Shown one piece after another: positions 36,653 to 54,477 of a stretch of DNA of 64,000 nt. The translations under genes were made by a program, and so were the position numbers. Location of the stretch: NCBI GenBank assembly GCA_029944565.1, contig GCA_029944565.1_4115.1; one strand, written 5' to 3'. The notes under the pieces were generated by a model, which was not told the origin of the DNA, did not search any database, and was given only the letters and a program-made list of their open reading frames with translations. Origin of the DNA: a phage. The stretch's first letter is position 1; the number at the start of each line of letters is the position of its first letter.

Positions 36653-36732
36653 TTAGATACACCTATGCACCCTGTGGGCTAGTTTTTGTCTATGCGTATA
36701 TAGTACTAAAGGAGCGGACCGAAGTCAACTCC
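36653..36732 (-). promoter_or_regulatory. conserved intergenic element, copy 1 (promoter TTGACT-17-TACTAT inside UUCG hairpin, then conserved core)
   Basis: core ...tgcaccctgtgggct... at 36653-36681; hairpin ggagcggac-cgaa-gtcaactcc at 36711-36732. Confidence 0.5.
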
Positions 36733-36751
36733 TTTTTTTATTCTTTTTTTG

Positions 36752-36952
36752 TTAGATGATTCTCCAATCATCAACGATCATGGTAAGATACCGAACCAGT
36801 GATTCGAGTGATTCGTGTTCTCGATAGTCTGCCGCTCCACCAGCGGTACAAGTACAGCCGATTAAGCCGTTTTGTAGTTCCTGGATCTTTACGTCGATCT
36901 GGTTGGCTTTAGCTTCTTTCAGTACTTCAACCAGGGCGATAGCGATAGACAT
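36752..36952 (-). CDS. hypothetical protein
   Basis: 66-aa ORF; SD ggag. Confidence 0.55.
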   Translation of the reverse strand: MSIAIALVEVLKEAKANQIDVKIQELQNGLIGCTCTAGGAADYREHESLESLVRYLTMIVDDWRII

Positions 36953-36974
36953 AATGTTTTACTCCAAACTATTG

Positions 36975-37035
36975 GCGGGAGAACTATTCCCCCGCTCTAT
37001 GTAAAACATTATACATTACTGGTTAGTACTGTCAA
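36975..37035 (-). promoter_or_regulatory. early promoter (TTGACA-16-TATAAT) plus leader hairpin
   Basis: perfect hexamers; hairpin gcgggagaactattcccccgc. Confidence 0.7.
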
Positions 37036-37041
37036 ATAGTT

Positions 37042-37299
37042 TTATGAAATATCTTCGATGTAGTCGGCCCATTTCATTTTTTCAGTACTGTCAATGGCTA
37101 CCGGATTATTTGGATCAAACCATTCACCATTCCCGCAATACATACCCACGCCAGCGGTAGTATATCCATCCTGGGCCGTATTCCATGACATTGCACGATA
37201 GATATGGCCTTTAATTGGTGTTAGTACTGGTAACGTTTTATGGTCTTCTACGTAGGCCATAGCTTGAGGATTTACCCGATATTGTGTGAACTGTTCCAT
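37042..37299 (-). CDS. hypothetical protein
   Basis: 85-aa ORF. Confidence 0.55.
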   Translation of the reverse strand: MEQFTQYRVNPQAMAYVEDHKTLPVLTPIKGHIYRAMSWNTAQDGYTTAGVGMYCGNGEWFDPNNPVAIDSTEKMKWADYIEDIS

Positions 37300-37327
37300 T
37301 ATGTTTCCCCTTGTAGTTAGTAAAGTT

Positions 37328-37356
37328 ATTACATCAGTACTATCAAGCTATGTCAA
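37328..37356 (-). promoter_or_regulatory. early promoter (TTGACA-17-TGTAAT)
   Basis: hexamers on minus strand. Confidence 0.45.
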
Positions 37357-37375
37357 TAGTACTGAAATAAAACTT

Positions 37376-37600
37376 TTAGATTAGATTATTGATGCCGTTG
37401 ATGGTAGACTCGCTTTCTTCTTTCTCCCATTGGCGGTAGTACTTCCATGCTTCATGATATGTGGCGATTAGTTCATCTTTTTGATCCTGAGTACATGCCA
37501 GTACTGAATCACGGTGAGCGGTGTTATAGATAGAATCGAATGATTTCTTCTCTTCTGCCAGGTTAGCTACTTCCCGCATCAGTTCATCAAAGTTAGCCAT
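37376..37600 (-). CDS. hypothetical protein
   Basis: 74-aa ORF; SD aaggag. Confidence 0.6.
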   Translation of the reverse strand: MANFDELMREVANLAEEKKSFDSIYNTAHRDSVLACTQDQKDELIATYHEAWKYYRQWEKEESESTINGINNLI

Positions 37601-37618
37601 TTTATTACTCCTTTTAGT

Positions 37619-37675
37619 GGGGGAGGATATCTCCCCCTATGCAAAACATTATACTTTGTTTTAGTTATTATGCAA
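37619..37675 (-). promoter_or_regulatory. early promoter (TTGCAT-16-TATAAT) plus leader hairpin
   Basis: hairpin gggggag-gatat-ctccccc. Confidence 0.65.
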
Positions 37676-37931
37676 GTACTTTTTTCATATAAAGATTATA
37701 TTCTACACCGCCGTAACCTTCTACGATGATATGTTTTGCGTTATCACGTTTGCACATAGTGAAACCGTTGTTGATGTGTTCTGCATTTTCCAGGGCGACA
37801 TCACCGATAGCGGCACATACGGCACTAATAACAGTATTCCGCAAAGTACTGGTATCATTAGCGGTCATAGTAGTTTGCAGTACTACGTTGTCGTATACGT
37901 GTGCATTGATAGTGATTTCGATAGTGTTCAT
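37668..37931 (-). CDS. hypothetical protein
   Basis: 87-aa ORF; SD aggag. Confidence 0.6.
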   Translation of the reverse strand: MNTIEITINAHVYDNVVLQTTMTANDTSTLRNTVISAVCAAIGDVALENAEHINNGFTMCKRDNAKHIIVEGYGGVEYNLYMKKVLA

Positions 37932-37949
37932 GGTGTATCTCCTGGACTG

Positions 37950-38010
37950 GCGGGAGAACTATTCCCCCGCTCTATGTAAAACATTATACGTTAATCTAAC
38001 TACAATGCAA
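37950..38010 (-). promoter_or_regulatory. early promoter (TTGCAT-16-TATAAT) plus leader hairpin
   Basis: same architecture as 36975..37035. Confidence 0.65.
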
Positions 38011-38017
38011 GTACTTT

Positions 38018-38209
38018 TTAAATTTTATTTCCGATATAGTCCGGTCTATTCTTTTCGGTCATACGCTTTGCTAATGTTTGCATATGGCTTATTGCGTTTA
38101 ATGTGTCTTCCTCCAGGGATGAATCAACATAATCAGGATCATTCTTCACCTTGCAATGATTATGATAGCGTAGTACTGCCAGTACTTTTTTAACTTCTTC
38201 TACTGTCAT
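38018..38209 (-). CDS. hypothetical protein
   Basis: 63-aa ORF, ATGA-coupled to upstream gene. Confidence 0.5.
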   Translation of the reverse strand: MTVEEVKKVLAVLRYHNHCKVKNDPDYVDSSLEEDTLNAISHMQTLAKRMTEKNRPDYIGNKI

Positions 38210-38478
38210 AATAAGTACCCCACTTCGTTAGCTTTCAGGTTAGTATCAATCATCAGTGGATTTTTGTAGTTCACAAAACGATTAGTTTTCTCGATAGCGA
38301 ATCCCATATAATCCAGCTTACTAACAGTACATTCATTCTTAAAAACTTCTTTCGCTGCATCGATGGCTGATTGCATGGATAACCGACCATCTAAATTAAT
38401 GTTTCCAAATGATCCACCAGCAGAAGTAGGATTACCGTTCATATCTTTAATGATCATAGTAGCGGAGTAGCTGGACAT
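38206..38478 (-). CDS. hypothetical protein
   Basis: 90-aa ORF. Confidence 0.6.
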   Translation of the reverse strand: MSSYSATMIIKDMNGNPTSAGGSFGNINLDGRLSMQSAIDAAKEVFKNECTVSKLDYMGFAIEKTNRFVNYKNPLMIDTNLKANEVGYLL

Positions 38479-38500
38479 AATTTTGTTTCCTTTTAGTATC

Positions 38501-38559
38501 GGGGAGAACTATTCTCCCCTTGATGTAAACTATTATACAGTACTGATATACTTTGTCAA
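38501..38559 (-). promoter_or_regulatory. early promoter (TTGACA-16-TATAAT) plus leader hairpin
   Basis: hairpin ggggagaa-ctat-tctcccc. Confidence 0.7.
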
Positions 38560-38565
38560 ATACTT

Positions 38566-38973
38566 TTATTCGCCCATATAGATTAAGTTATCATCGCCTA
38601 CATAGGGATCGCAAACGTTGATTTCTTCGCAGTACTTCGTGAATACATCGCCATAGTGACCTAAACCACGATCCCAAAAACCAGTTCCGTGACCTTCGCG
38701 GGTAAGGAACAGATCATGACCAGCTTGCTCATAACCGTAATCAATAAACATACCGCGAACTACTTCCAGATCATTACCGTGTTTCTCAATGAAGCGAGAA
38801 CATGCAATCACCGCCGCTTGACGTGCTTCATCAGATAACTCATAATCTTCCAGGTAATCGCCGTTATCATTATGTACAGTACTGAATTGCATAGCTTCAA
38901 TGTAAGCTACAACCATTGCAGCATGATTTTTATCGTTAGTGATGTTCCGAGCGAGATTAGTAGTAGTAGACAT
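38566..38973 (-). CDS. hypothetical protein
   Basis: 135-aa ORF. Confidence 0.6.
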   Translation of the reverse strand: MSTTTNLARNITNDKNHAAMVVAYIEAMQFSTVHNDNGDYLEDYELSDEARQAAVIACSRFIEKHGNDLEVVRGMFIDYGYEQAGHDLFLTREGHGTGFWDRGLGHYGDVFTKYCEEINVCDPYVGDDNLIYMGE

Positions 38974-38994
38974 GATTTTATTCCTTATTGTATT

Positions 38995-39053
38995 GGGGAG
39001 AACTATTCTCCCCTTGATGTAAACTATTATACAGTACTGATATACTTTGTCAA
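38995..39053 (-). promoter_or_regulatory. early promoter (TTGACA-16-TATAAT) plus leader hairpin
   Basis: near-identical copy of 38501..38559. Confidence 0.7.
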
Positions 39054-39056
39054 TAC

Positions 39057-39278
39057 TTAATTACGTTTAAAATGATATGTGCCTTTATCATCCTGTACGC
39101 CCCACACTGATTTACCATCAACACCAGTGAAACCGGATTGTAATTCAATATGGAAACCATTATTATCAACTACAAAAACTTTTTTATTTTCATCCCGATA
39201 ACATTGATATTCTGAATCAACATTAAAGGCCGCATCATTCAGAAGATTGGAAGCGTAAATGCAAGTCATTGTAGTCAT
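39057..39278 (-). CDS. hypothetical protein
   Basis: start MTTMTCIYAS; track ORF extended through leader hairpin. Confidence 0.55.
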   Translation of the reverse strand: MTTMTCIYASNLLNDAAFNVDSEYQCYRDENKKVFVVDNNGFHIELQSGFTGVDGKSVWGVQDDKGTYHFKRN

Positions 39279-39301
39279 GATTTTATTCCTTATTCTTTGA
39301 G

Positions 39302-39360
39302 GGAGAACCATTTCCCCCTCTCGATATAAAACATTATACTTGATTCTAAGTACAATGCAA
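39302..39360 (-). promoter_or_regulatory. early promoter (TTGCAT-16-TATAAT) plus leader hairpin
   Basis: hexamers and hairpin gggagaaccatttccccctc. Confidence 0.65.
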
Positions 39361-39402
39361 GTACTTTTTTAAAAATAGTTTTCAGTACTGAATACTTATA
39401 TA

Positions 39403-39487
39403 ATAGATACATTTATGCACCCTGTGGGTCAGTGAGCTATCTCTCAATGAATATATAATAGCAAAGGGACTGACCGAAGTCAATCCC
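39403..39487 (-). promoter_or_regulatory. conserved intergenic element, copy 2 (promoter TTGACT-17-TATTAT inside UUCG hairpin, then conserved core)
   Basis: core at 39403-39432; hairpin gggactgac-cgaa-gtcaatccc at 39465-39487. Confidence 0.5.
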
Positions 39488-39501
39488 TTTTTTAATCTTT
39501 T

Positions 39502-40086
39502 TTATCGTGTTATAGTTACGGCTTTTACATCCCGCTTTTTATAGTACTGATTCCAGATATTGCGGGTTAAACCGTAATCAAGTACTTTAATAAGGCCGTT
39601 GCGATCCTGGCCGATATTCTGTTTTCTGATATCTCTTATCGTTAGTGTTGACAGTGTATCATCAACGTGTTGTAGTGCATCAGCAAAGCGGTGCTGGCGT
39701 TCAATTGCATTACGTTTAATATTGTACTTTAATTCGTTGCACGCGTTAACGTGCTTTACACTGCCTTTGCTTGCAGTACTCAACCGATCCATAACGATAA
39801 ACATATTATCAGGATCGCTTAAATGCATATGCACTTTAGCAAAGTACTGTTTCAATTGAGGGCGGTCATAGTCTAAAAAATTCCATACCTTACATTCAGT
39901 TTCATTTTGTTCTACACCCGCATCACAATTGGCGACCTTAATCACTAACCGATCATTTAAAGCGAAAACTATACGGGAAGATCCCGCCCCGATGATCTCC
40001 AGGCCAGCTAACCGACAAGCTGAAAGGATCTCTTTGTTGGTTTCCATTTCTGACAGTGTACGGATGAATTTAGTATAATTACGCAT
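39502..40086 (-). CDS. protein kinase-like protein (putative)
   Basis: glycine-rich loop IGAGSSRIVF then VIKV; catalytic-loop-like NIGQDRNGLIKVLDYG; start MRNYTKF with SD aaggag. Confidence 0.4.
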   Translation of the reverse strand: MRNYTKFIRTLSEMETNKEILSACRLAGLEIIGAGSSRIVFALNDRLVIKVANCDAGVEQNETECKVWNFLDYDRPQLKQYFAKVHMHLSDPDNMFIVMDRLSTASKGSVKHVNACNELKYNIKRNAIERQHRFADALQHVDDTLSTLTIRDIRKQNIGQDRNGLIKVLDYGLTRNIWNQYYKKRDVKAVTITR

Positions 40087-40114
40087 TGCATGTTCTCCTT
40101 GAGTTAATGAAACT

Positions 40115-40143
40115 ATATTACAGTACTTTACTATCAATTGCAA
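40115..40143 (-). promoter_or_regulatory. early promoter (TTGCAA-17-TAATAT)
   Basis: hexamers on minus strand. Confidence 0.5.
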
Positions 40144-40360
40144 CTACTTTTTTAACATTAACGGCGTGGATCACTTCCTTAGTGTTTTTAGTACTGAATA
40201 CTTTCGCCGCTCCTTGTTCGACCGTGATACGATAGCGACCATTAACATCAACCATATTAATAAAGTCCGGCGTGCTGAATGGTGTTGTTTTACATTTCAG
40301 TACTGTTAACAATTCCACCAGCGATGTAGTTTCTTTGATACGTTTTTCTAAAGTAATCAT
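40118..40360 (-). CDS. hypothetical protein
   Basis: 80-aa ORF. Confidence 0.55.
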   Translation of the reverse strand: MITLEKRIKETTSLVELLTVLKCKTTPFSTPDFINMVDVNGRYRITVEQGAAKVFSTKNTKEVIHAVNVKKVVAIDSKVL

Positions 40361-40389
40361 TTTGTTTTTCCCCGTGTTGGTATGTACAT

Positions 40390-40418
40390 ATAGTACTAAA
40401 ACATTTGAGTACTGTCAA
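40390..40418 (-). promoter_or_regulatory. early promoter (TTGACA-17-TACTAT)
   Basis: ~60-bp block duplicated at 40640-40694. Confidence 0.55.
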
Positions 40419-40637
40419 TTAGATAATTGCATATTTCTTTAAAGATAATGCGTCTTGGGTTGGCTGATACTCAATGCCGTTACCGTTATCTACTTTAACT
40501 AATAAACCTTTGTCAATTAGTTTTTTAATAGTCCTTTGGCCTTGTTGAAAATTGGTAAAATGTGAATCATTACGAAAGGTATAACCGTGCTTAACTGCTT
40601 CATCAATAGTTTTCTTTTCGATTTTAGATAATTTCAT
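40419..40637 (-). CDS. hypothetical protein
   Basis: start MKLSKIEKK; track ORF extended upstream. Confidence 0.55.
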   Translation of the reverse strand: MKLSKIEKKTIDEAVKHGYTFRNDSHFTNFQQGQRTIKKLIDKGLLVKVDNGNGIEYQPTQDALSLKKYAII

Positions 40638-40665
40638 TTTGTTTCTCCCGTGTTGGTATGTGTAC

Positions 40666-40694
40666 ATAATACTAAAACAATTGAGTACTGTCAA
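40666..40694 (-). promoter_or_regulatory. early promoter (TTGACA-17-TATTAT)
   Basis: duplicate of 40390..40418 block. Confidence 0.55.
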
Positions 40695-40945
40695 CGTGAT
40701 ATTAGTTTTATTTTCTTATTATATTGTTGGTGTTCATATAGGTTTATCTTTCCTGTGTTCTCAATTACTATTCTGTTGTTAGTGTCTACATCGATTACAC
40801 GCAGTTTTCCGTTGCTTAACTTCCTTGGTAATAGGTTACCATTAATAAACTCATTAGCAAGCTGTACGGCCTTTGTGATGATTCTCTGTGGTGCTTTATA
40901 GTGTACCCGCAAGATATTATCTTTAGATAGTTGTACCTTAATCAT
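40691..40945 (-). CDS. hypothetical protein
   Basis: 84-aa ORF. Confidence 0.55.
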   Translation of the reverse strand: MIKVQLSKDNILRVHYKAPQRIITKAVQLANEFINGNLLPRKLSNGKLRVIDVDTNNRIVIENTGKINLYEHQQYNKKIKLISR

Positions 40946-40959
40946 TTTAGTTTATCCTA

Positions 40960-40986
40960 TAAAAAAGGCGGGAACTGATCCCGCCG
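40960..40986 (-). terminator. rho-independent terminator
   Basis: hairpin ggcggga-actga-tcccgcc followed by UUUUUU on minus strand. Confidence 0.55.
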
Positions 40987-41007
40987 TGTTGTTAGTACTG
41001 CAAGTTA

Positions 41008-41403
41008 TTAGATAACCTGGCGGCGTTTACTGTATACTGTTACACGATTACCCTTACGGTCGTGTCGGATCTCTTTCTGGTTGCGTACCAGTTCACTTGG
41101 ACGCTTAAGGTTTGCCAGGTGATCCGCGTGAGTCCAAGCGGTATGGTTTGTCTGTACTTTGATATCAGAATCAGCGATAAATTCATCTTGTGCGTTAAGT
41201 ACTGCCGCCAGTAAATCCGCTCGTTTTAGTTCTGCTGCTGTTAGTACTGGCTCCGGTGAATTCACGATATCAGAGATTTCTTTGAACTGTACGGCCCAGC
41301 GTTGACCTTTCGGTGCATCTTTGCCCATGTCTTTAAATGCTGCTCCTTCCTCGCGTGCAACAATACGGGCAGCTTCACGGGTAGCGTAGAATTTAGTAAT
41401 CAT
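41008..41403 (-). CDS. hypothetical protein (paralog of 52725..52991)
   Basis: shared YATREAARIAAR, FKDMG, DRKGNRVTVY; start MITKFYATRE. Confidence 0.6.
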   Translation of the reverse strand: MITKFYATREAARIVAREEGAAFKDMGKDAPKGQRWAVQFKEISDIVNSPEPVLTAAELKRADLLAAVLNAQDEFIADSDIKVQTNHTAWTHADHLANLKRPSELVRNQKEIRHDRKGNRVTVYSKRRQVI

Positions 41404-41447
41404 GGTATACATCCTATTAGTTGAGTTAGTACTACAAGTTAGAGTCT

Positions 41448-41476
41448 ATTATAAAGTACTATCTGGGCAATGTCAA
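41448..41476 (-). promoter_or_regulatory. early promoter (TTGACA-17-TATAAT)
   Basis: perfect hexamers. Confidence 0.65.
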
Positions 41477-41498
41477 ATAGTACTTTAAATGGATTCTA

Positions 41499-41822
41499 TT
41501 ACATGTCTTTCTTACGTTTTACATCGTTGTATCGAACTGTTATTTCTTTGTTAATCTCTTTTTCGATGCGGTGAATAACTTTTTCTTTCGGGTTGAAACC
41601 TATAACGGTTTCTTTAATGATCTCCAAGCCCGTGTATTCGCCTTGTGTGCCGTAACCGTATGTAAAGGTTTCATGTCCCAGGTCTTCCCAACGATCACCA
41701 ATTAACGCAGACACGTAGCAAGAGTGGTAAGTATTGCCGTGTGAATCAGTCCACCGATTAACTTTAATGTCAAAGGAGGTTACAATTTTCAGTTCTACTT
41801 TCTGGGCAAGGATCATAGCCAT
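41499..41822 (-). CDS. hypothetical protein (paralog of 48459..48782)
   Basis: shared RWTDSxGNTYHSC, FTYGY, DVKRKKD; start MAMILAQ. Confidence 0.6.
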   Translation of the reverse strand: MAMILAQKVELKIVTSFDIKVNRWTDSHGNTYHSCYVSALIGDRWEDLGHETFTYGYGTQGEYTGLEIIKETVIGFNPKEKVIHRIEKEINKEITVRYNDVKRKKDM

Positions 41823-41844
41823 TTTTATTTCTCTCTCTTTGTTA

Positions 41845-41907
41845 GGAGGGGAACCGTTTCCCCTCACTTGATGTAAACTATTATACAGTACTAAGATACT
41901 TTGTCAA
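41845..41907 (-). promoter_or_regulatory. early promoter (TTGACA-16-TATAAT) plus leader hairpin
   Basis: hairpin gaggggaaccgtttcccctc. Confidence 0.7.
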
Positions 41908-41910
41908 TAC

Positions 41911-42093
41911 TTATTTTTTGGAAAGTTTACGCATTAATTCTACGCTTTCTTGTGAACGTTTTGCTACCTGGCAAGCTGCATGGACAGTAAACATTTTTGT
42001 ATAGTCTGACGGTTTGCCACCGAACCGAGCGGCACGTTCACGGGCACTTGGAACTAATACGATTTCTTTCTTACAGATAGTGCATTTAGCCAT
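41911..42093 (-). CDS. small Cys-containing hypothetical protein
   Basis: 60-aa ORF MAKCTICKK... Confidence 0.5.
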   Translation of the reverse strand: MAKCTICKKEIVLVPSARERAARFGGKPSDYTKMFTVHAACQVAKRSQESVELMRKLSKK

Positions 42094-42113
42094 TTTTATT
42101 TCTCTCTCTTTGT

Positions 42114-42176
42114 TAGGAGGGGAACCATTCCCCCTCTCGATGTAAACTATTATACAGTACTAAGATACTTTGTCAA
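42114..42176 (-). promoter_or_regulatory. early promoter (TTGACA-16-TATAAT) plus leader hairpin
   Basis: near-identical copy of 41845..41907. Confidence 0.7.
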
Positions 42177-42179
42177 TAC

Positions 42180-42455
42180 TTAATTATTGTAAATGTCGTG
42201 AATAGTGATAAAGTTTTTACGACCGTAAACCTGCAAATCAATATCAATGTAGTGCTTATCTAGTACATCCTCGACGCTTAACGCGGTGTCGTGGATATCT
42301 TCGTAGAATTGAGGATCTACAATCTTGCTTAAGTCATCCGGCGTTAACTCATCGTTAAGCCGTTGAACCGCCTGGATATCTGCTTCACGTTTCCAGTCTT
42401 CCAGGTTAGTAGTCAGTACTTGTTCGATTTCGTTAGCTGTCAGTAGAATCCGCAT
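42180..42455 (-). CDS. hypothetical protein
   Basis: 91-aa acidic ORF. Confidence 0.6.
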   Translation of the reverse strand: MRILLTANEIEQVLTTNLEDWKREADIQAVQRLNDELTPDDLSKIVDPQFYEDIHDTALSVEDVLDKHYIDIDLQVYGRKNFITIHDIYNN

Positions 42456-42488
42456 TTTAATGTTTCCTTATCAGTGGTTGATGTAAGT

Positions 42489-42516
42489 ATTATACTCGTT
42501 TACTTTCTATTGTCAA
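42489..42516 (-). promoter_or_regulatory. early promoter (TTGACA-16-TATAAT)
   Basis: proximal of three tandem promoters. Confidence 0.6.
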
Positions 42517-42604
42517 ACTATTTTATCAGGGGAGGTTTTCTTATGTCTTACTCCTGGACTACTTAACGGGGTTACTTGTTTCGTTCCCCGTCCTGATGTA
42601 AAAT

Positions 42605-42632
42605 ATTATACTTGATTCTAAGTACAATGCAA
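42605..42632 (-). promoter_or_regulatory. early promoter (TTGCAT-16-TATAAT)
   Basis: second tandem promoter; 70-nt leader with hairpin acgggg-N14-ccccgt. Confidence 0.55.
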
Positions 42633-42662
42633 GTACTTTTTAAAAATAGTTTTCAGTACTAG

Positions 42663-42670
42663 CCACCAGC
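42663..42670. other. Chi octamer (CCACCAGC)
   Basis: exact 8-mer next to conserved element. Confidence 0.5.
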
Positions 42671-42675
42671 AAACA

Positions 42676-47779: not shown

Positions 47780-47784
47780 ATTAA

Positions 47785-48458: not shown

Positions 48459-48782
48459 TTAAAGATCTTTTTTACGTTTTACATCCTGTACAGTACAATG
48501 CAACGGGATAGACAAATCATTACACAAACGAGTAAGGGAGGTTTCAACAGTATCAAGCCCGTCTACTGATTCCTTTAAGAGATCAAACGCCGTTTGTTGA
48601 TATGCATCTTCATAGCCATAAGTAAATGATTCAACCGCCAGATCATTCAAACCGTTATCCAGTTCAACGCTTACATGACAAGAATGATAAGTATTGCCAT
48701 ATGAATCAGTCCAACGTTTACCGTCAACATTGATTGCATGGATTGCAGCCAGGGAAACGGTATTGATGATAGTTTTAGCCAT
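48459..48782 (-). CDS. hypothetical protein (paralog of 41499..41822)
   Basis: shared RWTDSYGNTYHSC, FTYGY, DVKRKKD. Confidence 0.6.
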   Translation of the reverse strand: MAKTIINTVSLAAIHAINVDGKRWTDSYGNTYHSCHVSVELDNGLNDLAVESFTYGYEDAYQQTAFDLLKESVDGLDTVETSLTRLCNDLSIPLHCTVQDVKRKKDL

Positions 48783-48825
48783 TTTAGTATTCCTTAAATT
48801 AATATGTGTCGTCTTGATAAAATCT

Positions 48826-48854
48826 ATTATGCCAGTACTATCAAACTATGTCAA
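48826..48854 (-). promoter_or_regulatory. early promoter (TTGACA-17-CATAAT)
   Basis: hexamers on minus strand. Confidence 0.55.
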
Positions 48855-48873
48855 TAGTACTGTGATAATATTT

Positions 48874-49086
48874 TTACTTACTTTCTTTCGCTGCTTTATA
48901 TGTTGCCACTGCCATAACCACATCAGCACGAACAAAGTTTTTAACCGTGTCACTGTAATAATTGATCGCATCATCTATATCTGCGAACGTCCGATACATA
49001 CCGCACCAAGATACTTTATAACCTTCTTTCACTTCTGCCAGTTTAACGATAGTCTTGTTAACTTTGATTTTAGTAATGATAGCCAT
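48874..49086 (-). CDS. hypothetical protein
   Basis: start MAIITKIKV; track ORF extended through leader. Confidence 0.55.
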   Translation of the reverse strand: MAIITKIKVNKTIVKLAEVKEGYKVSWCGMYRTFADIDDAINYYSDTVKNFVRADVVMAVATYKAAKESK

Positions 49087-49105
49087 TTTAGTTTCCTCAT
49101 TATCA

Positions 49106-49164
49106 GGGAGAACCATTTCTCCCCTTGATGTAATGTATTATACTTTATTCGATTTACTTTGCAA
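49106..49164 (-). promoter_or_regulatory. early promoter (TTGCAA-16-TATAAT) plus leader hairpin
   Basis: hairpin gggagaaccatttctcccc. Confidence 0.65.
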
Positions 49165-49173
49165 GTACTTTTT

Positions 49174-49401
49174 TTAATTTAATTCATCCAGGCAAAGGAT
49201 ACGCTCAACGCCCAAATCAGTTAAACTAATCGACGGCACTTGATAGGTTTCAATGTATGCTACACTTGCCCACTGACCGAACTCATTAACGGCCCAGGTA
49301 TTCATTGCATTTTGCAATTCCGCACCTGCCTTGTTAGTAATGACTGCAACTACTTGTTCGTTGCCAGTAGTACCAGATACGCGAGTAATGATAATAGCCA
49401 T
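49174..49401 (-). CDS. hypothetical protein
   Basis: start MAIIITRVSG. Confidence 0.55.
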   Translation of the reverse strand: MAIIITRVSGTTGNEQVVAVITNKAGAELQNAMNTWAVNEFGQWASVAYIETYQVPSISLTDLGVERILCLDELN

Positions 49402-49421
49402 TGTTTTGATTCCTTTGATTT

Positions 49422-49484
49422 GGAAGGAGAACCGTTTCCCCCTCTCGATGTAAAACATTATACGCTAATCTCTTAATCGTGCAA
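49422..49484 (-). promoter_or_regulatory. early promoter (TTGCAC-16-TATAAT) plus leader hairpin
   Basis: hexamers and hairpin ggagaaccgtttcccc. Confidence 0.6.
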
Positions 49485-49549
49485 GTACTTTTTATTACTT
49501 TTTGCAAAATACTTTAAACGCTCTCAATCGCATTCTAACGACCTTAACG

Positions 49550-49557
49550 CCACCAGC
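49550..49557. other. Chi octamer (CCACCAGC)
   Basis: exact 8-mer; partner in opposite orientation at 49612. Confidence 0.5.
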
Positions 49558-49611
49558 TAGGGCGATGTATCAGATAATCAGTTTAATGCGTTAGAATCGA
49601 TTCTAGGCGGT

Positions 49612-49619
49612 GCTGGTGG
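49612..49619. other. Chi octamer (GCTGGTGG)
   Basis: exact 8-mer. Confidence 0.5.
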
Positions 49620-49635
49620 ACTGGAATACTACAGA

Positions 49636-49666
49636 CACAAAAAAGCCCACTGTTTAAGGTGGGCTA
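49636..49666 (-). terminator. rho-independent terminator
   Basis: hairpin agcccac-tgtttaag-gtgggct followed by UUUUUUGUGU on minus strand. Confidence 0.65.
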
Positions 49667-49686
49667 GTGATTCAGTACTTTAATTG

Positions 49687-50169
49687 TTATGCTTCAACTT
49701 TGCGATGAGCTTCGATCCATTCCTCGCGAGTCATACCGCTTTCTTTGATAGCGTCCAGTACTACCGCAATGCAGTTACCGCGTACAGGAATCATATGTTC
49801 TTCCCCGTTATCAAGTACTACAGTAACACGTTCTTGAATCCATTTTTTAGGTTTAGATTCTGGCTTATCTTCACCATACTTAACCGCCAGGGCTTTATGT
49901 GCCATTTCTACAACTACTTCCAGATCCAATCCAGCCACCGCCGCCTGGATACTTTCGATTGTTGCTTGCAGTTCGGCTTCACGGGCTTTTTTCTGTTCTT
50001 CCAGTTCTGCTACCTTTTTGGCTTGCAGTTCTTTAGCTTCACTGTACGCAATGTTAAAATTGTTGCGTACTGCTTTCATGGTATCGTTATCCAGGTCAGC
50101 CAACAATTCAGCAGCAATAACAGTATCGTTTGAAATCAGTGCTTTCAGGAATGATTTTACATTAGCCAT
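49687..50169 (-). CDS. hypothetical protein with central coiled-coil-like segment
   Basis: start MANVKSFLKAL with SD gagga; Ala/Glu/Lys-rich heptad-like middle. Confidence 0.6.
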   Translation of the reverse strand: MANVKSFLKALISNDTVIAAELLADLDNDTMKAVRNNFNIAYSEAKELQAKKVAELEEQKKAREAELQATIESIQAAVAGLDLEVVVEMAHKALAVKYGEDKPESKPKKWIQERVTVVLDNGEEHMIPVRGNCIAVVLDAIKESGMTREEWIEAHRKVEA

Positions 50170-50292
50170 TTTATAAATCCTCAATTAAAGTTTAGTTTAC
50201 GTTTATTAGTGTATCAAAGTTTTATCGACGTGTCCAGTTTTTCGTTCGACTTACTGGCGGTCTACTTAGTGCTCCCCGTCTTGATGTAATAC

Positions 50293-50320
50293 ATTCTACG
50301 CCTTTTTGTGGTAATGTCAA
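50293..50320 (-). promoter_or_regulatory. promoter (TTGACA-16-TAGAAT) with ~110-nt leader
   Basis: leader starts ...catcaagacgg... like other conserved-core transcripts. Confidence 0.5.
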
Positions 50321-50369
50321 CTACTATTTTAAAACTATTTTTAAAGTATGCAGTACTACGATAATACAA

Positions 50370-50401
50370 AAACAAAAAAGCCCACTGTTTAAGGTGGGCT
50401 A
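50370..50401 (-). terminator. rho-independent terminator (identical copy of 49636..49666)
   Basis: same hairpin agcccactgtttaaggtgggct plus U-run. Confidence 0.65.
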
Positions 50402-50417
50402 GTGATTCAGTACTATA

Positions 50418-50717
50418 TTATAAACAGTTAATTACTCCGGTGTGCGTTACTTTCTCAGTATCCATAACCGTGACCGATCCACGCTTAGTACTTACATCGT
50501 AATAAATTGTCGTGCTACCTTTTTCGTCTTCTTCATGGAACGGGCCGCTTTTAAATGCTTCTGGCTGGATCTCTAAATCCTTTAAAACAATCTCGCCAGT
50601 ACTTTCATCTGTCATCGCAACAGTGCACTGAATGAATTTTTCACTACTTACATCTAACGACGCATTAACAGCGAAAGAGGAAACAGATAAAGCCAGGGCG
50701 ATGATTGCAATTTTCAT
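50418..50717 (-). CDS. secreted/periplasmic protein (predicted signal peptide)
   Basis: N-terminus MKIAIIALALSVSSFAVNA with AxA-type cleavage site. Confidence 0.55.
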   Translation of the reverse strand: MKIAIIALALSVSSFAVNASLDVSSEKFIQCTVAMTDESTGEIVLKDLEIQPEAFKSGPFHEEDEKGSTTIYYDVSTKRGSVTVMDTEKVTHTGVINCL

Positions 50718-50728
50718 TTGATTATCCT

Positions 50729-50796
50729 TAGTTACCAGGGGGAACCGCTCCCCCGTGCGATGTAAAATATTGTACAGTACTAAAAACTAATTGCAA
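50729..50796 (-). promoter_or_regulatory. early promoter (TTGCAA-16-TACAAT) plus leader hairpin
   Basis: hairpin ggggga-accgc-tccccc. Confidence 0.6.
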
Positions 50797-50801
50797 GTAC
50801 T

Positions 50802-51038
50802 TTATGATTTTTTATAAAACATTTCGGCAGTAATATTTTTACCCGTTGGTTGTACTTTATCCAGAATTTTTTGATGCCCTGGCCGTCCAAATGAATATGA
50901 TCCGTAAACCGTAAACCAGTAGTTACCCTCAGTGTTTACATGTACAGCACAATAGGGAACGCCCCGCGATTCATCACCAATAAAGTGTGATACCGTTCCC
51001 GTTACATTAGCAGACGTTGATTTGATTTGTTCAAGCAT
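50802..51038 (-). CDS. hypothetical protein
   Basis: 78-aa ORF. Confidence 0.55.
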   Translation of the reverse strand: MLEQIKSTSANVTGTVSHFIGDESRGVPYCAVHVNTEGNYWFTVYGSYSFGRPGHQKILDKVQPTGKNITAEMFYKKS

Positions 51039-51058
51039 TTTCTTATTCCTTAGTTACC

Positions 51059-51114
51059 AGGGGGAACCGCTCCCCCTATGCAAAACATTATACGCGTTTA
51101 AAAACTAATAGCAA
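51059..51114 (-). promoter_or_regulatory. early promoter (TTGCTA-16-TATAAT) plus leader hairpin
   Basis: duplicate of the 50729..50796 block. Confidence 0.6.
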
Positions 51115-51147
51115 GTATTTTAATAAAAAGTATTTGAAAAATAATTG

Positions 51148-51176
51148 TTGACAACTGCATCCAGTACTGGCATAAT
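51148..51176 (+). promoter_or_regulatory. plus-strand promoter (TTGACA-17-CATAAT)
   Basis: hexamers read on plus strand; drives conserved-core transcript. Confidence 0.55.
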
Positions 51177-51182
51177 TACTAC

Positions 51183-51275
51183 ATCAAGACGAAACAGTCA
51201 CTAACCCACCGGGTGCCGAGATCCGTCTATTAAATGATTCAGTACTTAACAATAAAGGGGATCAATCGATCCCCT
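51183..51275 (+). ncRNA. candidate small RNA carrying the conserved promoter-proximal core
   Basis: no ORF; GAC-gaaaca-GTC hairpin then ACTAACCCACCGGGTGC; ends at hairpin ggggatc-aatc-gatcccc. Confidence 0.35.
51248..51275 (-). terminator. candidate rho-independent terminator
   Basis: same hairpin read on minus strand is followed by UUUAUUGUU after stop of 51281..51502. Confidence 0.45.
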
Positions 51276-51280
51276 ATGTA

Positions 51281-51502
51281 TTACTTAGTAAGGTATAAAC
51301 AGAAGTCACCTTTATTTGCTACGCCGCCAGTGTAACGCGATGAATAGTTAGAAACGTCCTGGACTTCTGCTATTACCAGTGTATCATCATTCAATTCGTC
51401 GCAGAAGCAAACGGCTGGATCTTTTACGCCGATCTTGTCGGCATGTTCCCGCATAGATTTAACCAGTGCTTCCAGTTGAGAAAGAGTAGTGATATTAGCC
51501 AT
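51281..51502 (-). CDS. hypothetical protein
   Basis: start MANITTLSQ; track ORF extended through leader. Confidence 0.55.
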   Translation of the reverse strand: MANITTLSQLEALVKSMREHADKIGVKDPAVCFCDELNDDTLVIAEVQDVSNYSSRYTGGVANKGDFCLYLTK

Positions 51503-51521
51503 TGTATTTTCCTCATTACCA

Positions 51522-51580
51522 GGGAGAACCATTTCTCCCCTCTATGTAAACTATTATACAGTACTGAAAACTAATTGCAA
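51522..51580 (-). promoter_or_regulatory. early promoter (TTGCAA-16-TATAAT) plus leader hairpin
   Basis: hairpin gggagaaccatttctcccc. Confidence 0.65.
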
Positions 51581-51586
51581 GTACTT

Positions 51587-51775
51587 TTAATTAAATTCCA
51601 TAAAATCATTCTCAACGTGCACAACAATTTGATTGTTTTTAAAGTCCGCAGCGAACTCGATGCAATCATAAACCGCTTTTTGTGTTACAATGCTATGAGT
51701 ACCAATCGGATTAATAGGGGATTGAATTGTTTCAATCTCGTTCCCTTGCTCATTAACAATTAAAATATTAAACAT
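51587..51775 (-). CDS. hypothetical protein
   Basis: 62-aa ORF; SD aggag. Confidence 0.5.
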   Translation of the reverse strand: MFNILIVNEQGNEIETIQSPINPIGTHSIVTQKAVYDCIEFAADFKNNQIVVHVENDFMEFN

Positions 51776-51813
51776 CGCTGTTACTCCTGGGTAGTGTTAA
51801 CTCGATATAAAGT

Positions 51814-51841
51814 ATTATACGCCTTTATTGCTTAGTGTCCA
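51814..51841 (-). promoter_or_regulatory. early promoter (TGGACA-16-TATAAT)
   Basis: hexamers on minus strand. Confidence 0.5.
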
Positions 51842-52038
51842 GTACTTTTTAAAACATATTCATAAACACTACGCACATCATTGATCATCGCCTGGCGGTT
51901 AGCAGGTAACGCACCAGGATCGCCACTATCCCAGGCATTGATAAAACTCCCCAAATCATGAAAGATTTTATTCTGTAAGCCGATTAACTGCAATTCTTTT
52001 TCTTCAAGCTCTTTGATACGGTCAATTAAAAGACTCAT
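51832..52038 (-). CDS. hypothetical protein
   Basis: start MSLLIDRIKE with RBS ctgaggattatcta identical to next gene. Confidence 0.5.
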   Translation of the reverse strand: MSLLIDRIKELEEKELQLIGLQNKIFHDLGSFINAWDSGDPGALPANRQAMINDVRSVYEYVLKSTGH

Positions 52039-52055
52039 TAGATAATCCTCAGTAC

Positions 52056-52337
52056 TTAATTGTAAGATCCGCAACGGTTACAATAGTGCCCGTCTTCCTC
52101 GTCAACGAATTGACCGACGAAATTATCTACTTTCTCTTTGAGATTCTGATAATTGTTTTCAACTTCCTTTAGACGTTCCTGGTAGTATTCCAGGGCTTGC
52201 ACATACGCCGCCTCAGCCGTTTTCGCTCTTAAGGCTAAATTCATGCCACGCGTTTCATCGTACATCCAAAAGCCATCGGTGCACTCACTGATTGACAATG
52301 ATTTGGTTAACACTTTATAGTCAATTACTTTGCTCAT
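52056..52337 (-). CDS. hypothetical protein
   Basis: start MSKVIDYKV; C-terminal CNRCGSYN. Confidence 0.5.
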   Translation of the reverse strand: MSKVIDYKVLTKSLSISECTDGFWMYDETRGMNLALRAKTAEAAYVQALEYYQERLKEVENNYQNLKEKVDNFVGQFVDEEDGHYCNRCGSYN

Positions 52338-52393
52338 TAGATAATCCTCAGTAAAGGCGGGAACCACACCCGCCATTGATTCAGTACTGAATG

Positions 52394-52633
52394 TTACATT
52401 CCAACCATTGCAGCACGGATCGCCGTAGTGCTATACTTGAATCCGTCCGGTGTTGTAGTAGTACCGTTGGCTTTTAATCTGCGGTACATACATTGGGCCG
52501 CAATATCTTTAGTTTTACATTGTGCGATGCAACTTTGAGCAAGCCGATATAATGACTCACCGTTATTAATCCACAATGAAACATTCCAATGAGTTTTGTT
52601 TTTGTGCCCGTTGTAAGTTTTAGTAGTAGCCAT
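52394..52633 (-). CDS. hypothetical protein (paralog of 53077..53316)
   Basis: shared GHKNKTxWNVSLWINN and TPDGFKYSTTAIRAAMVGM. Confidence 0.6.
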   Translation of the reverse strand: MATTKTYNGHKNKTHWNVSLWINNGESLYRLAQSCIAQCKTKDIAAQCMYRRLKANGTTTTPDGFKYSTTAIRAAMVGM

Positions 52634-52655
52634 TTTTAAATCCTCGTTTAATTGA

Positions 52656-52717
52656 GCGGGAGAACCATTCCCCCGCCTCGATATAAAGTATTATACGCTT
52701 TTAAACTTAGTTTGCAA
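52656..52717 (-). promoter_or_regulatory. early promoter (TTGCAA-16-TATAAT) plus leader hairpin
   Basis: hairpin gcgggagaaccattcccccgc. Confidence 0.65.
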
Positions 52718-52724
52718 GTACTTT

Positions 52725-52991
52725 TTATTCAAGTACTGCGATCTTTTTAATACGGTACACGGTCACGCGGTTGCCCTTTCGGTCGAGCTTTATTTCTACC
52801 ACTCGACGCGATACACTATCAGGACTTTTCAACGCCGCTAACCAGTACTGTAATGATCTGGCGGTACTACGCTTTACAATGGCCCAACGTTTACCACGTT
52901 CCGATTGTACGCCCATATCTTTAAACGTTGCCCCGTCCTGGCGTGCGGCGATCCGAGCTTGTTCACGCGTCGCAAAATACTTAATATTCAT
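52725..52991 (-). CDS. hypothetical protein (paralog of 41008..41403)
   Basis: shared FATREQARIAAR and DRKGNRVTVY; start MNIKYFATRE. Confidence 0.6.
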   Translation of the reverse strand: MNIKYFATREQARIAARQDGATFKDMGVQSERGKRWAIVKRSTARSLQYWLAALKSPDSVSRRVVEIKLDRKGNRVTVYRIKKIAVLE

Positions 52992-53022
52992 GCTGTTGCC
53001 CTTATCGTTGGTGTATGAATAA

Positions 53023-53060
53023 AACACTATTATAAAGTACTATCGCAAAAAATGATAGTA
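53023..53060. promoter_or_regulatory. perfect palindrome AGTACTATC-N9-GATAGTACT next to a -10-like TATAAT
   Basis: 9-bp inverted arms upstream of 52725..52991; candidate operator. Confidence 0.35.
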
Positions 53061-53076
53061 CTTTAAATCTATTCTA

Positions 53077-53316
53077 TTACATTCCAACCATTGCAGCACG
53101 GATCGCCGTAGTACTGTACTTGAATCCGTCCGGCGTTTTATCTTGTCCAGTCTGTTCTAAAAATAGCATCATATGACGGGCCGCATCATTGCGATTAGTG
53201 TTAGCGGCAATAAAGTCCTGGGCCAACCGGTATAATGATTCATCGTTATTAATCCAAAGGCTTACATTCCATTGAGTTTTGTTTTTGTGACCTAAGAACA
53301 TTTTTGATTTAGCCAT
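53077..53316 (-). CDS. hypothetical protein (paralog of 52394..52633)
   Basis: identical C-terminal 19 aa. Confidence 0.6.
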   Translation of the reverse strand: MAKSKMFLGHKNKTQWNVSLWINNDESLYRLAQDFIAANTNRNDAARHMMLFLEQTGQDKTPDGFKYSTTAIRAAMVGM

Positions 53317-53337
53317 TTTTAAATCCTCTTAATTATA

Positions 53338-53396
53338 GTGGGGAACTATTCCCCACCTGATGTAAAACATTATACGCTTTTAAACTTAGTTTGCAA
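53338..53396 (-). promoter_or_regulatory. early promoter (TTGCAA-16-TATAAT) plus leader hairpin
   Basis: hairpin gtgggga-actat-tccccac. Confidence 0.65.
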
Positions 53397-53410
53397 GTAC
53401 TTTTTAAAAC

Positions 53411-53773
53411 TTATTCGTAAATCTTGCCACTGTCAGCCCATACCAGGAAACGAGGCATATTATCCCATGCATCTTGCTTTAAATTTAAACCGTGTAATAC
53501 TTCTGTACTTTCCATTCCTGGTACTGGTTTACTATACACCGCAAATAGTTCACCCATATACTGATAAGCCATCGTTAAATCACTGGCGATCATCTTATGG
53601 ATCATCGCATCAAGCATCACGGTAGCGGCGTATTGTTCACGCTTAAGCGGTAACATTGCAATAAGTTCCCGATAAGCTGAAATGTGAATTTTTACCGTTT
53701 CAGCCGGAAGACCTTTCATCTCTTCACGGAAGTTAACCAGGTTAGCAATAATTTTATTGATTTGAGTCGCCAT
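53411..53773 (-). CDS. hypothetical protein
   Basis: start MATQINKII; track ORF extended through leader. Confidence 0.6.
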   Translation of the reverse strand: MATQINKIIANLVNFREEMKGLPAETVKIHISAYRELIAMLPLKREQYAATVMLDAMIHKMIASDLTMAYQYMGELFAVYSKPVPGMESTEVLHGLNLKQDAWDNMPRFLVWADSGKIYE

Positions 53774-53797
53774 CGTTTTCATCTCTCTTACAGTGTA

Positions 53798-53856
53798 GCG
53801 GGAAGTGTTCCCGCTCTCGATGTAAAACATTATACGCTTTTAAACATAGTTTGCAA
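53798..53856 (-). promoter_or_regulatory. early promoter (TTGCAA-16-TATAAT) plus leader hairpin
   Basis: hairpin agcggga-agtgt-tcccgct. Confidence 0.65.
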
Positions 53857-53886
53857 GTACTTTCTACATGTACTTTTAAAATAGTT

Positions 53887-53975
53887 TTCTTTCTATATAG
53901 GAGTACTATTATTCAGTACTGCAACCATCCAGGGGAACTATCTTTCTATATAGGAGTACTATGATTCAGTACTGA
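53887..53975. repeat. two ~33-bp direct repeats (tctttctatataggagtactatNattcagtactg)
   Basis: copies at ~53889-53920 and ~53942-53975. Confidence 0.6.
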
Positions 53976-54136
53976 ATCAATCCACCAAATCATCCCGATA
54001 CCCCGTAAAACGGCCTCAGACGCATTCTAACGCATTAATACACCTAAGCTATACATTTGCACCATTCCAATCATTCCAGGGCTTTACGGGCCGTTTAAAC
54101 GCGTTAAATTATTTTCAATTATTTTGTTTTTAGCTA

Positions 54137-54164
54137 TTGACTCAGTACTGAAAAAGCGTATAAT
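54137..54164 (+). promoter_or_regulatory. plus-strand promoter (TTGACT-16-TATAAT)
   Basis: hexamers on plus strand; followed by conserved-core transcript. Confidence 0.55.
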
Positions 54165-54351
54165 TACTATATAGACGCGAGAAAGCGGATACCCCAGGGG
54201 GTGGGAAGATCCGTCCAAAATTCAAGATATAAAAAAAGGATAGACTCCCGCACCCTAGCAGGTTAACGCACTTTCTCAGTACTGAATTATAGTACCATAG
54301 TCCGGCCCAGGATGGCAAGCAAATTAATTAAAACTTTTTTCATCCAGGGTA

Positions 54352-54380
54352 TTGCTTTATTTTTCCAGTACTGCTATAAT
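54352..54380 (+). promoter_or_regulatory. plus-strand promoter (TTGCTT-17-TATAAT)
   Basis: followed by GTC-gagaaa-GAC hairpin and CCCACCGGGTGCATAGTTGTATCTA core. Confidence 0.5.
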
Positions 54381-54477
54381 ATTTTTATCAAGTCGAGAAA
54401 GACTCTAGCCCACCGGGTGCATAGTTGTATCTAAAATTCAGTACTAGATTATTTTTTAAAATTATTCATCCAAGCGG

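Follow-up and report, generated by a model that had tools for sequence, protein, structure and literature searches.

Motif copies in the terminal repeat

The 64,000-nucleotide (nt) stretch of phage DNA analyzed here, referred to as the window (assembly GCA_029944565.1, contig GCA_029944565.1_4115.1), carries repeated copies of a short promoter-proximal motif made up of a first hairpin (hairpin 1), a linker, a second hairpin (hairpin 2) and a 3′ tail. This motif is a real and previously undescribed structured RNA element, and it constitutes the first ~50 nt of the RNA from a subset of the host-sigma70 early promoters. By megablast, the window belongs to the 121Q/PBECO4/G17 group of RaK2-like E. 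coli jumbo phages at 93–97% identity. Position 55,511 of its minus strand is the alignment partner of nucleotide 1 of phage fEgEco12, and fEgEco12 position 20,244 corresponds to window position 36,000. The direct terminal repeat of fEgEco12, the termini of which were determined experimentally, spans 20,993 bp (PMC13070987); the alignments therefore place the direct terminal repeat of the window at ~35,250–55,511 (~20 kb). All motif copies, P1–P9, lie within it.

The genes of the terminal repeat are oriented inward, on the minus strand. Most of its 49 small open reading frames (ORFs; minus strand, within 34959–53830) are of no known function by Pfam and PHROGs, the exceptions being a DksA/TraR-type zinc finger (44534–44788), a ParE-like toxin domain and a GNAT acetyltransferase, with further matches to a kinase domain (weak), to DUF7249 (two ORFs) and to DUF7247. 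Five paralogue pairs are present among these ORFs, and the region is dense in terminators.

Motif copies were assembled from a search with the 19-mer GGGTGCATAAATGTATCTA, reading of the flanks, a promoter scan and a covariance model, R1. With up to three mismatches allowed, the 19-mer occurs seven times against 0.01 expected, which, together with the covariance model, bears out the original prediction that a conserved element is repeated here. The window holds seven strong copies (33–57 bits), one divergent copy and one possible degenerate copy. All eight promoter positions given in that prediction are correct in the promoter scan, and its eighth copy is the divergent P8. The mini-hairpins that it listed are present in six of the eight copies, whereas no stem is found at 36.7 and 42.7 kb; a weaker hairpin in two of the copies had been pointed out in the prediction.

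Every copy is preceded by a sigma70-type promoter, termed promoter A below, as determined by promoter scan and flank reading; promoter B denotes a second promoter located past the motif. In P1–P4, the −35 box of promoter A lies inside a 9–12 bp hairpin that is followed by a T-rich run. This arrangement is that of the PeSL, a composite early promoter and stem-loop terminator of T4-like phages (PMC2839356, PMC4122927). A stem-loop terminator overlapping an early sigma70 −35 box, which is a property of the promoter and not of the motif, is found for P1–P4, with 12-pair stems and a T-rich tail in P2, P3 and P4, and is not found for P5–P9. The features are as follows.

36558–36586, minus strand: promoter B of P1, TTGACA-17-GATAAT, followed by a 5′ hairpin, a Shine–Dalgarno site and ATG
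36654–36728, minus strand: copy P1, sequence read; motif 36654–36687, 38.2 bits; promoter A with −35 TTGACT at 36728–36723, within a hairpin, and −10 TACTAT at 36705–36700; in place of a hairpin-1 stem, an A-rich AGACAAAAA stretch
39333–39360, minus strand: promoter B of P2, TTGCAT-16-TATAAT, with AGTACT sites on its flanks
39404–39490, minus strand: copy P2; motif 39404–39446, 54.3 bits; PeSL-type terminator/promoter hairpin 39463–39490; promoter A 39483–39455; hairpin 1 UGAG-AGAUAG-CUCA, linker CUGA, then CCC-ACA-GGGUGC-AUAAA-UGUAUCUA
42605–42632, minus strand: promoter B of P3, TTGCAT-16-TATAAT
42663–42670: Chi site after the P3 motif
42677–42758, minus strand: copy P3, without a hairpin-1 stem; motif 42677–42714, 32.8 bits; hairpin 42731–42758; promoter A 42751–42723
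44972–44999, minus strand: promoter B of P5, TTGATC-16-TATAAT; the next ORF after it is the DksA/TraR-type zinc finger, 44534–44788
45034–45115, minus strand: copy P5; motif 45034–45076, 48.7 bits; promoter A 45115–45087, TTGACA-17-CATAAT, with AGTACTGG in its spacer; hairpin 1 GAC-GAGAAC-GUC, hairpin-2 loop AUA, tail UGUAACUG
46629–46656, minus strand: promoter B of P4, TTGCAA-16-TATAAT
46710–46796, minus strand: copy P4; motif 46710–46752, 51.2 bits, central pentamer AGGAG; hairpin 46769–46796; promoter A 46789–46761
51148–51229, plus strand: stand-alone copy P6, opposing the direction of the local genes; promoter 51148–51176; motif 51187–51229 with tail UCCGUCUA, 53.2 bits
51256–51275, bidirectional: terminator-type hairpin GGGGATCAATCGATCCCC of P6
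54137–54217, plus strand: divergent, outward copy P8; promoter 54137–54164; motif 54175–54217, 16.7 bits, E 0.01; hairpin 1 CGC-GAGAAA-GCG 54176–54187; core CCCCAGGGGGUGGGAAGAUCCGUCCA 54192–54217
54238–54318, minus strand: possible degenerate copy P9; promoter 54318–54289; ACU-GAGAA-AGU; core CCUGCUAGGGUGCGGGAGUCUAUCC 54262–54238
54352–54433, plus strand: outward copy P7; −35 54352–54357; −10 54375–54380; motif 54391–54433; hairpin 1 AGUC-GAGAAA-GACU; 57.0 bits, the highest score in the window
54478–54506, plus strand: promoter B of P7, TTGACA-17-GATAAT, directed at the genome terminus through an octamer array

P9 was seen by eye only and scores below the threshold of the covariance model; tentatively, it is probably a ninth copy (54238–54280, minus strand), convergent with P8, and the tails of the two lie 20 nt apart. 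Outside of the terminal repeat, a weak motif-like sequence at 1165–1213 (minus strand; 11 bits, E 0.39) follows a TTGACT promoter-like box and may have decayed from a true copy or match by chance.

Structure and conservation of the motif

Pattern scans of viral and metagenome collections furnished extra loci, and model R1 then returned 80 and 127 matches; in all, 169 distinct copies from at least five phage genera and metagenomes were obtained with the covariance model, and the anatomy described next is drawn from these related-phage copies. The motif is 43–50 nt long with stems of 3–4 bp. Hairpin 1 possesses a stem of arbitrary sequence, mostly 4 bp (range 3–5 bp), and an A/G-rich loop, typically of 6 nt (GAGAAA, GCGAAA, GAACAA, AGAUAA; range 5–8 nt), with the hexaloops GAGAAA and GCGAAA being the commonest. 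Past the linker, YUAR, hairpin 2 is built from CCC, a loop of 3–4 nt (ACA, AUA, ACC, UAUA and others) and GGG, with an R-U closing pair. GC, a variable purine-rich pentamer RGARR and then U-N-Y-R-U-C-U-A follow. The 16-nt tail (U-GC-RGARR-U-N-Y-R-UCUA) is free of insertions and deletions in 166 of the 169 copies and is apparently unpaired. CCC, GGGUGC and UCUA are invariant; with hairpin 2 ending at position 47, G48 is likewise invariant, and positions 57 and 58 are without exception a pyrimidine and a purine, respectively. The 3-bp stem originally described is thus present, usually as 4 bp when the flanking pair is counted, and the accompanying conserved 25-mer holds for CCC-AYA-GGGUGC and U-N-Y-R-UCUA while its five central nucleotides (RGARR) vary; the CCC and GGG within this 25-mer are themselves a hairpin.

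CBB-like phages often have GGAGA as the central pentamer, whereas E. coli phages have AUAAA, and AUG is present in a minority of copies only. On these grounds, a leader peptide or Shine–Dalgarno role and CsrA-type GGA sites were rejected. The hairpin-1 stem is absent from about 10–15% of copies. These stem-less copies retain an A-rich AGAAACAA stretch; hence, the loop-like sequence of hairpin 1 seems to matter more than its stem.

Support for the RNA fold was sought in covariation. In model alignments of two independent sets, hairpin 1 is paired in 86% and 84% of cases, with both-sided changes in all four pairs; the covariation values of 0.465 and 0.421 compare with 0.143 and 0.133 after shuffling (0/500 shuffles in each set), and slid controls did not exceed 0.07. 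Because model alignments lean towards the model, the test was repeated in alignment-free form, anchored on CCC in one fixed register without gaps. Here, 57.8% of cells are paired versus 36.7 ± 2.0% in shuffled data (0/1000), neighboring registers reach 29–38%, and more than 20 distinct stem sequences are represented. The stem covariation that had been predicted from eight copies is thereby strongly confirmed on 169, and the description as a promoter-proximal element at the RNA level is supported. Hairpin 2, being almost invariant, tells less. The few changes that it shows come in pairs (CCU...AGG in CBB and Yen9-03, two genera), its loop can have 3 or 4 nt around a constant stem, and its closing pair alternates between A-U and G.U (42/29 and 53/51), which is compatible on the transcribed strand only. 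RNAalifold returned the same two helices. Two additional structures were rejected: a third helix in the tail (UGCA/UGUA), as C49 and N56 do not pair in 44% of copies, and a pseudoknot between the hairpin-1 loop and the tail, the own-copy duplex energy of which is no better than the cross-copy energy (permutation p 0.23–0.41). Taken together, selection acts on the RNA fold and on specific unpaired nucleotides.

These same observations bear on whether hairpin 2 and the tail might instead be a site in duplex DNA, an operator or roadblock for a phage or host protein positioned just past selected promoters, singly or as inverted pairs, with hairpin 1 as an unrelated 5′ stabilizer. The CCU...AGG double changes and the 1-nt change in loop length fit a hairpin rather than a duplex site, and the A-U/G.U alternation is strand-specific. 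Moreover, the motif is always sense-oriented to its own promoter, and no promoter-less copies were found. A duplex site would account for the lack of RNA pairing in the tail, for the inverted pairs with a fixed 19-bp spacer or with longer spacers carrying Fur-box-like palindromes, and for the resemblance of the tail, YRTCYA, to a 19-unit array of the octamer GCCRTCTA near the terminus, an array conserved in CBB and Yen9-03. On balance, we judge such a DNA site improbable.

The promoter and motif together recur at 72–81% identity in GAP32, RaK2, K64-1, CBB, Serratia phage BF, and Erwinia and Yersinia jumbo phages, and the unit is present 9–12 times per terminal repeat. The 12 copies of CBB are all inside its 22,456-bp terminal repeat, those of Yen9-03 are confined to the first 16 kb, and records that contain both repeat copies show twice as many motif matches as records with one. 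Beyond the phages, 100,044 bacterial and archaeal genomes yielded only three matches to a strict pattern, a number at chance level, and the taxa concerned are unrelated. A 61-nt query matched none of 5,426 complete E. coli genomes, and the idea that the motif mimics a host sequence was rejected on this basis. The Rfam search proposed with the original prediction, run as a scan of 35–57 kb with Rfam 15 (E-value mode), gave four chance-level matches (E 0.46–3.3) and no family at any copy. No tRNA or tmRNA was found, and the motif sequence is unmentioned, and the motif undescribed, in the searchable full-text literature. Membership of the motif in a known family is thus not demonstrated. Resemblances noted by eye to type I-F/I-E CRISPR repeats, phage 21 boxB, the tmRNA PK1 region, and Ter, IHF and DnaA sites concern non-conserved positions and were dropped.

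Might the motif be functionless, carried along in a mobile PeSL-like cassette that is spread by recombination and maintained by gene conversion, and at most serving as a generic 5′ stabilizer? Promoter A of P1–P4 is 86–88% identical over 42 nt to elements of KVP40-like Vibrio phages, the motif, like PeSLs, is located amid small, variable early ORFs, the ORFs flanking its copies are unrelated and of no known function, and some promoters of the same type in the region are without the motif. However, the definition of the PeSL does not include a conserved transcribed motif, and the PeSL matches in Vibrio and other phage groups end before the motif, which also stands behind the ordinary, non-PeSL promoters of P5–P8. 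The same nucleotides are invariant across genera even as the flanks and hairpin-1 stems diverge, and the stand-alone and paired architectures described below are conserved as well. There is thus little likelihood that the motif is a passive passenger.

The PeSL-type hairpins themselves (39463–39490, 42731–42758, 46769–46796 and 36711–36733) match other phages at 86–92% over ~40 nt, namely KVP40-like Vibrio phages, 50-kb Yersinia phages and 150-kb Enterobacter phages. This sequence similarity suggests a PeSL-type regulatory cassette common to unrelated phage groups.

Genomic settings and the nascent transcript

At 77 of 78 distinct loci of related phages, the motif is preceded at a fixed distance by a promoter with a score of 9/12 or more; 25–29 nt separate the end of the −10 box from CCC, or 20–22 nt where hairpin 1 is absent. 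Transcription is inferred to start at the A of a recurrent CAT ~7 nt past the −10 box, which would place the beginning of hairpin 1 at +5 to +8.

Three settings were discerned, with counts taken over 186 loci. In the leader setting (P1–P5 and P7), an AT-rich stretch, often with AGTACT in it, comes after the motif, and beyond this stretch lie a second strong promoter and then a 5′ hairpin, a Shine–Dalgarno site and a gene. The genes behind leader copies are mutually unrelated, and a gene-family-specific leader was accordingly rejected. In the second setting, 64 of the 186 loci form convergent pairs with no gene between the partners; divergent pairs are not found. The tail-to-tail gap is exactly 19 nt in 23 of 31 distinct convergent pairs, and 30, 37 or 40 nt in the others. 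Both the window (P8/P9) and CBB have a convergent pair no more than ~1.3 kb away from the left terminus, and in Yen9-03 the first pair is at 306/392 of a record that may not begin at the true terminus. In the stand-alone setting, encountered in several genera, a bidirectional intrinsic terminator 20–30 nt past the motif delimits a predicted RNA of ~95–110 nt. P6 (51148–51275) and ~22 related loci have the attributes of a small-RNA gene, that is, their own promoter and terminator, an intergenic location and no ORF, which the leader copies do not. The P6 unit is closed by the GGGGATCAATCGATCCCC hairpin, giving a predicted RNA of ~95–100 nt, and this hairpin is also present behind the matching RaK2 copy (L014:2720–2764). 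The suggestion of a small RNA family, made with the original prediction, fits such promoter–motif–terminator units. In total, 86 of the 186 loci (~46%) are convergent or terminator-closed and are without downstream genes.

Fur-box-like palindromes (e.g. GAGAATGATAATCATTTAC, three mismatches to the 19-bp consensus) are present in the 30–40 nt spacers of some convergent pairs, and also near the termini of RaK2-like relatives (records L013 24/250/1084; L022 6091; L030 912–1286; L002 344). None that is convincing was found within the terminal repeat of the window.

The promoter-proximal location of the motif raises the possibility that it acts in cis on the polymerase that transcribes it, as a hairpin-stabilized pause. 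Here, hairpin 2 would be the pause hairpin, with the invariant Y57-R58 step 10–11 nt downstream and a G at −10, and the outcome would be either a parked RNA polymerase or the loading of a factor for elongation or antitermination, much as at nut, put or ops. The motif geometry matches the elemental pause consensus, G-10 Y-1 G+1, and the hairpin spacing of his-type pauses: the small hairpin is held, without gaps, at a fixed 10–11 nt from the pyrimidine-purine step, and an invariant G lies ten positions upstream. A hairpin 10–12 nt upstream, G at −10, pyrimidine at −1 and purine at +1 are thus all present, at the sequence level only. The motif is also always in sense 20–29 nt past the −10 box, its leader location recalls that of pause and ops sites, the region is terminator-dense, the repeat encodes a polymerase-binding protein of DksA/TraR type, and the convergent gap is exactly 19 nt, as though room had to be left for two polymerases or a bound factor. 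This gap suggests a constraint on a DNA–polymerase complex.

What a cis-acting pause does not explain is that ~46% of copies have nothing downstream to antiterminate and that a second promoter intervenes in leader copies. The invariant CCC/GGG, a conserved loop A and the conserved YUAR linker are likewise unneeded by pause hairpins, which are not sequence-invariant, whereas hairpin 2 is. The RfaH ops 12-mer GGCGGTAGnnTG (up to two mismatches) has 18 matches against 13.1 expected, none of them at the motif copies, and boxA is absent as described next. We consider a pause in cis possible, but rather unlikely.

Comparison with the antitermination sites that the original prediction had invoked, lambdoid nut and HK022 put, bears on the same reading. 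The lambdoid nut site comprises boxA and boxB and is bound by N and Nus factors. As in nut, the motif is located on an early transcript soon after a host-polymerase promoter, and hairpin 1 is similar in style to boxB in being small, with a purine-rich loop (here GAGAAA, GCGAAA, GAACAA) and a stem free to covary. The geometry differs, boxB having a GNRA-like pentaloop and hairpin 1 a loop of 5–8 nt. The conserved linear part of the motif lies 3′ of this hairpin and includes a second, invariant hairpin; in place of two nut sites there are 9–12 motif copies per repeat, many of them convergent or terminator-closed. Searches for boxA (CGCUCUUA / UGCUCUUUA; YGCTCTTTA with up to one mismatch) gave 30 matches against 27.7 expected, none adjoining a copy in sense. 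None of the 49 terminal-repeat ORFs belongs to an antiterminator family (N-, Q- or NusG-like) by Pfam and PHROGs, and none contains six or more arginines in 18 residues as an N-like protein might, N proteins being hard to detect.

The put site acts in cis through the zinc-binding domain of the RNA polymerase beta-prime subunit, and is ~65–70 nt long with longer stems. Like put, the motif offers two adjacent stem-loops in nascent RNA from an early promoter, and neither needs an obvious dedicated protein gene. Compared by description only, the motif is distinct in its 43–50 nt length, its stems of 3–4 bp and its conserved unpaired tail. While put precedes the genes and terminators under its control, nearly half of the motif copies precede nothing. 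Given the chance-level boxA matches, the lack of an N-like protein, the loci without downstream genes and the second strong promoter between motif and gene in leader copies, membership of the motif in the nut or put class is not supported.

Several further repeated elements accompany the motif. AGTACT occurs 259 times in the window, and CAGTACTG 54 times, most densely at 36–62 kb and nearly absent from 22–28 kb and 32–36 kb. It is found in promoter spacers directly before the −10 box (AGTACTGTATAAT), flanks second promoters, and lies within 40 nt past the motif tail at 68% of loci versus 27% for background. AGTACT could be a site for a phage regulator or, as it is its own reverse complement, an RNA pairing element. 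Eleven Chi sites (GCTGGTGG) are located in 36613–54934, all within the terminal repeat; nine point one way (CCACCAGC on the plus strand) and two the opposite way, including that at 54927, ~580 bp from the inferred left terminus. This bias fits protection of both linear ends from RecBCD. In related phages, Chi likewise turns up in the spacers of promoters and in the flanks of the motif. At 54607–54758, ~750–900 bp away from the inferred left terminus, 19 octamers of consensus GCC(A/G)TCTA form a tandem array. It has no counterpart elsewhere in the window (eight core matches in one 200-nt bin versus a mean of 0.4), and both CBB (L001 ~660–835) and Yen9-03 (L002 1–105) have it conserved in the same orientation; its core, YRTCYA, is the part that resembles the motif tail, and the outward promoters P7, P8 and 54478 are directed into it. 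Transcripts from second promoters and many motif-less transcripts begin with ACAU(C/A)GA, continue into a variable GC-rich hairpin and reach a Shine–Dalgarno site (e.g. 39300–39330, 42560–42600, 46590–46625, 46150–46190), in what looks like a general 5′ hairpin on the early mRNAs of this phage. Lastly, a terminator hairpin, AGCCCACCTTAAACAGTGGGCT, with a T-run is present twice on the minus strand, at 49644–49665 and 50379–50400, ~735 bp apart.

A short RNA as the candidate product

The reading that we tentatively favor, as the leading candidate though short of probable, is that the motif would be a sequence-specific 5′ RNA handle for a protein or for RNA polymerase, and that the short motif-bearing RNA would itself be the product. 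The handle would be a ribonucleoprotein platform for a single partner, which may be RNA polymerase or else an RNA-binding protein of the host or of the phage. Produced abundantly from the first DNA to enter the cell, the RNA may titrate, recruit or mark this partner, and would not serve the expression of downstream genes. Three observations favor the RNA as product: close to half of the copies lack a gene that they could serve, the second promoter bypasses the leader copies, and the stand-alone units possess classical small-RNA gene architecture.

Such a role has parallels in decoy RNAs. Strong dedicated promoters and high gene dosage are shared with CsrB/RsmZ, 6S RNA and phage RNA anti-CRISPRs, as is the combination of a conserved protein-binding module with a variable remainder. 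Unlike these, the motif owes its dosage to many separate one-module genes, and no similarity to a host RNA was found. In a more distantly related phage, PA5oct of Pseudomonas, two abundant noncoding RNAs are encoded in the terminal repeat (PMC7318152). The motif is absent from both (L032, L033; 8263–8498, 21951–22401), which were therefore rejected as motif carriers; abundant early noncoding RNAs from terminal repeats may thus be a wider theme, served by different sequences.

Several points weigh against an RNA handle. The start sites, 3′ ends and abundance of the motif-bearing RNAs are predictions. Leader copies have no terminator ahead of the second promoter, and their RNAs probably run on into mRNA. 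Neither the exact 19-nt spacing of pairs nor the Y-R/G(−10) pattern after hairpin 2 is required of a free RNA; both fit better with an event involving DNA or RNA polymerase. Moreover, 5′ hairpins are common on motif-less early leaders of the region as well, and hairpin 1 alone could therefore be a generic stabilizer.

A bolder version of the RNA handle, which we hold to be speculative and less likely than the pause in cis, envisions a battery of 18–24 near-identical mini-genes per genome, the ~50-nt RNA of which would be the first product once the DNA has entered and would neutralize or hijack a specific host factor, with a defense nuclease, RNA polymerase and an RNA chaperone as candidates. 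The 19-nt convergent pairs would then be a new head-on device for defining RNA ends without terminators.

Jumbo phages of the RaK2/121Q type are under development against E. coli and Klebsiella, and no transcript map of them was found in the searchable literature. The conservation of the motif in at least five genera infecting Enterobacterales, at about ten copies per terminal repeat and behind near-consensus host promoters, points to a specific early interaction of RNA with a protein or with RNA polymerase. The motif provides a short, defined and easily mutated handle for finding the partner in this interaction, as well as a clean new family for RNA databases, and the convergent promoter pairs of fixed geometry furnish a testable model for head-on transcription.

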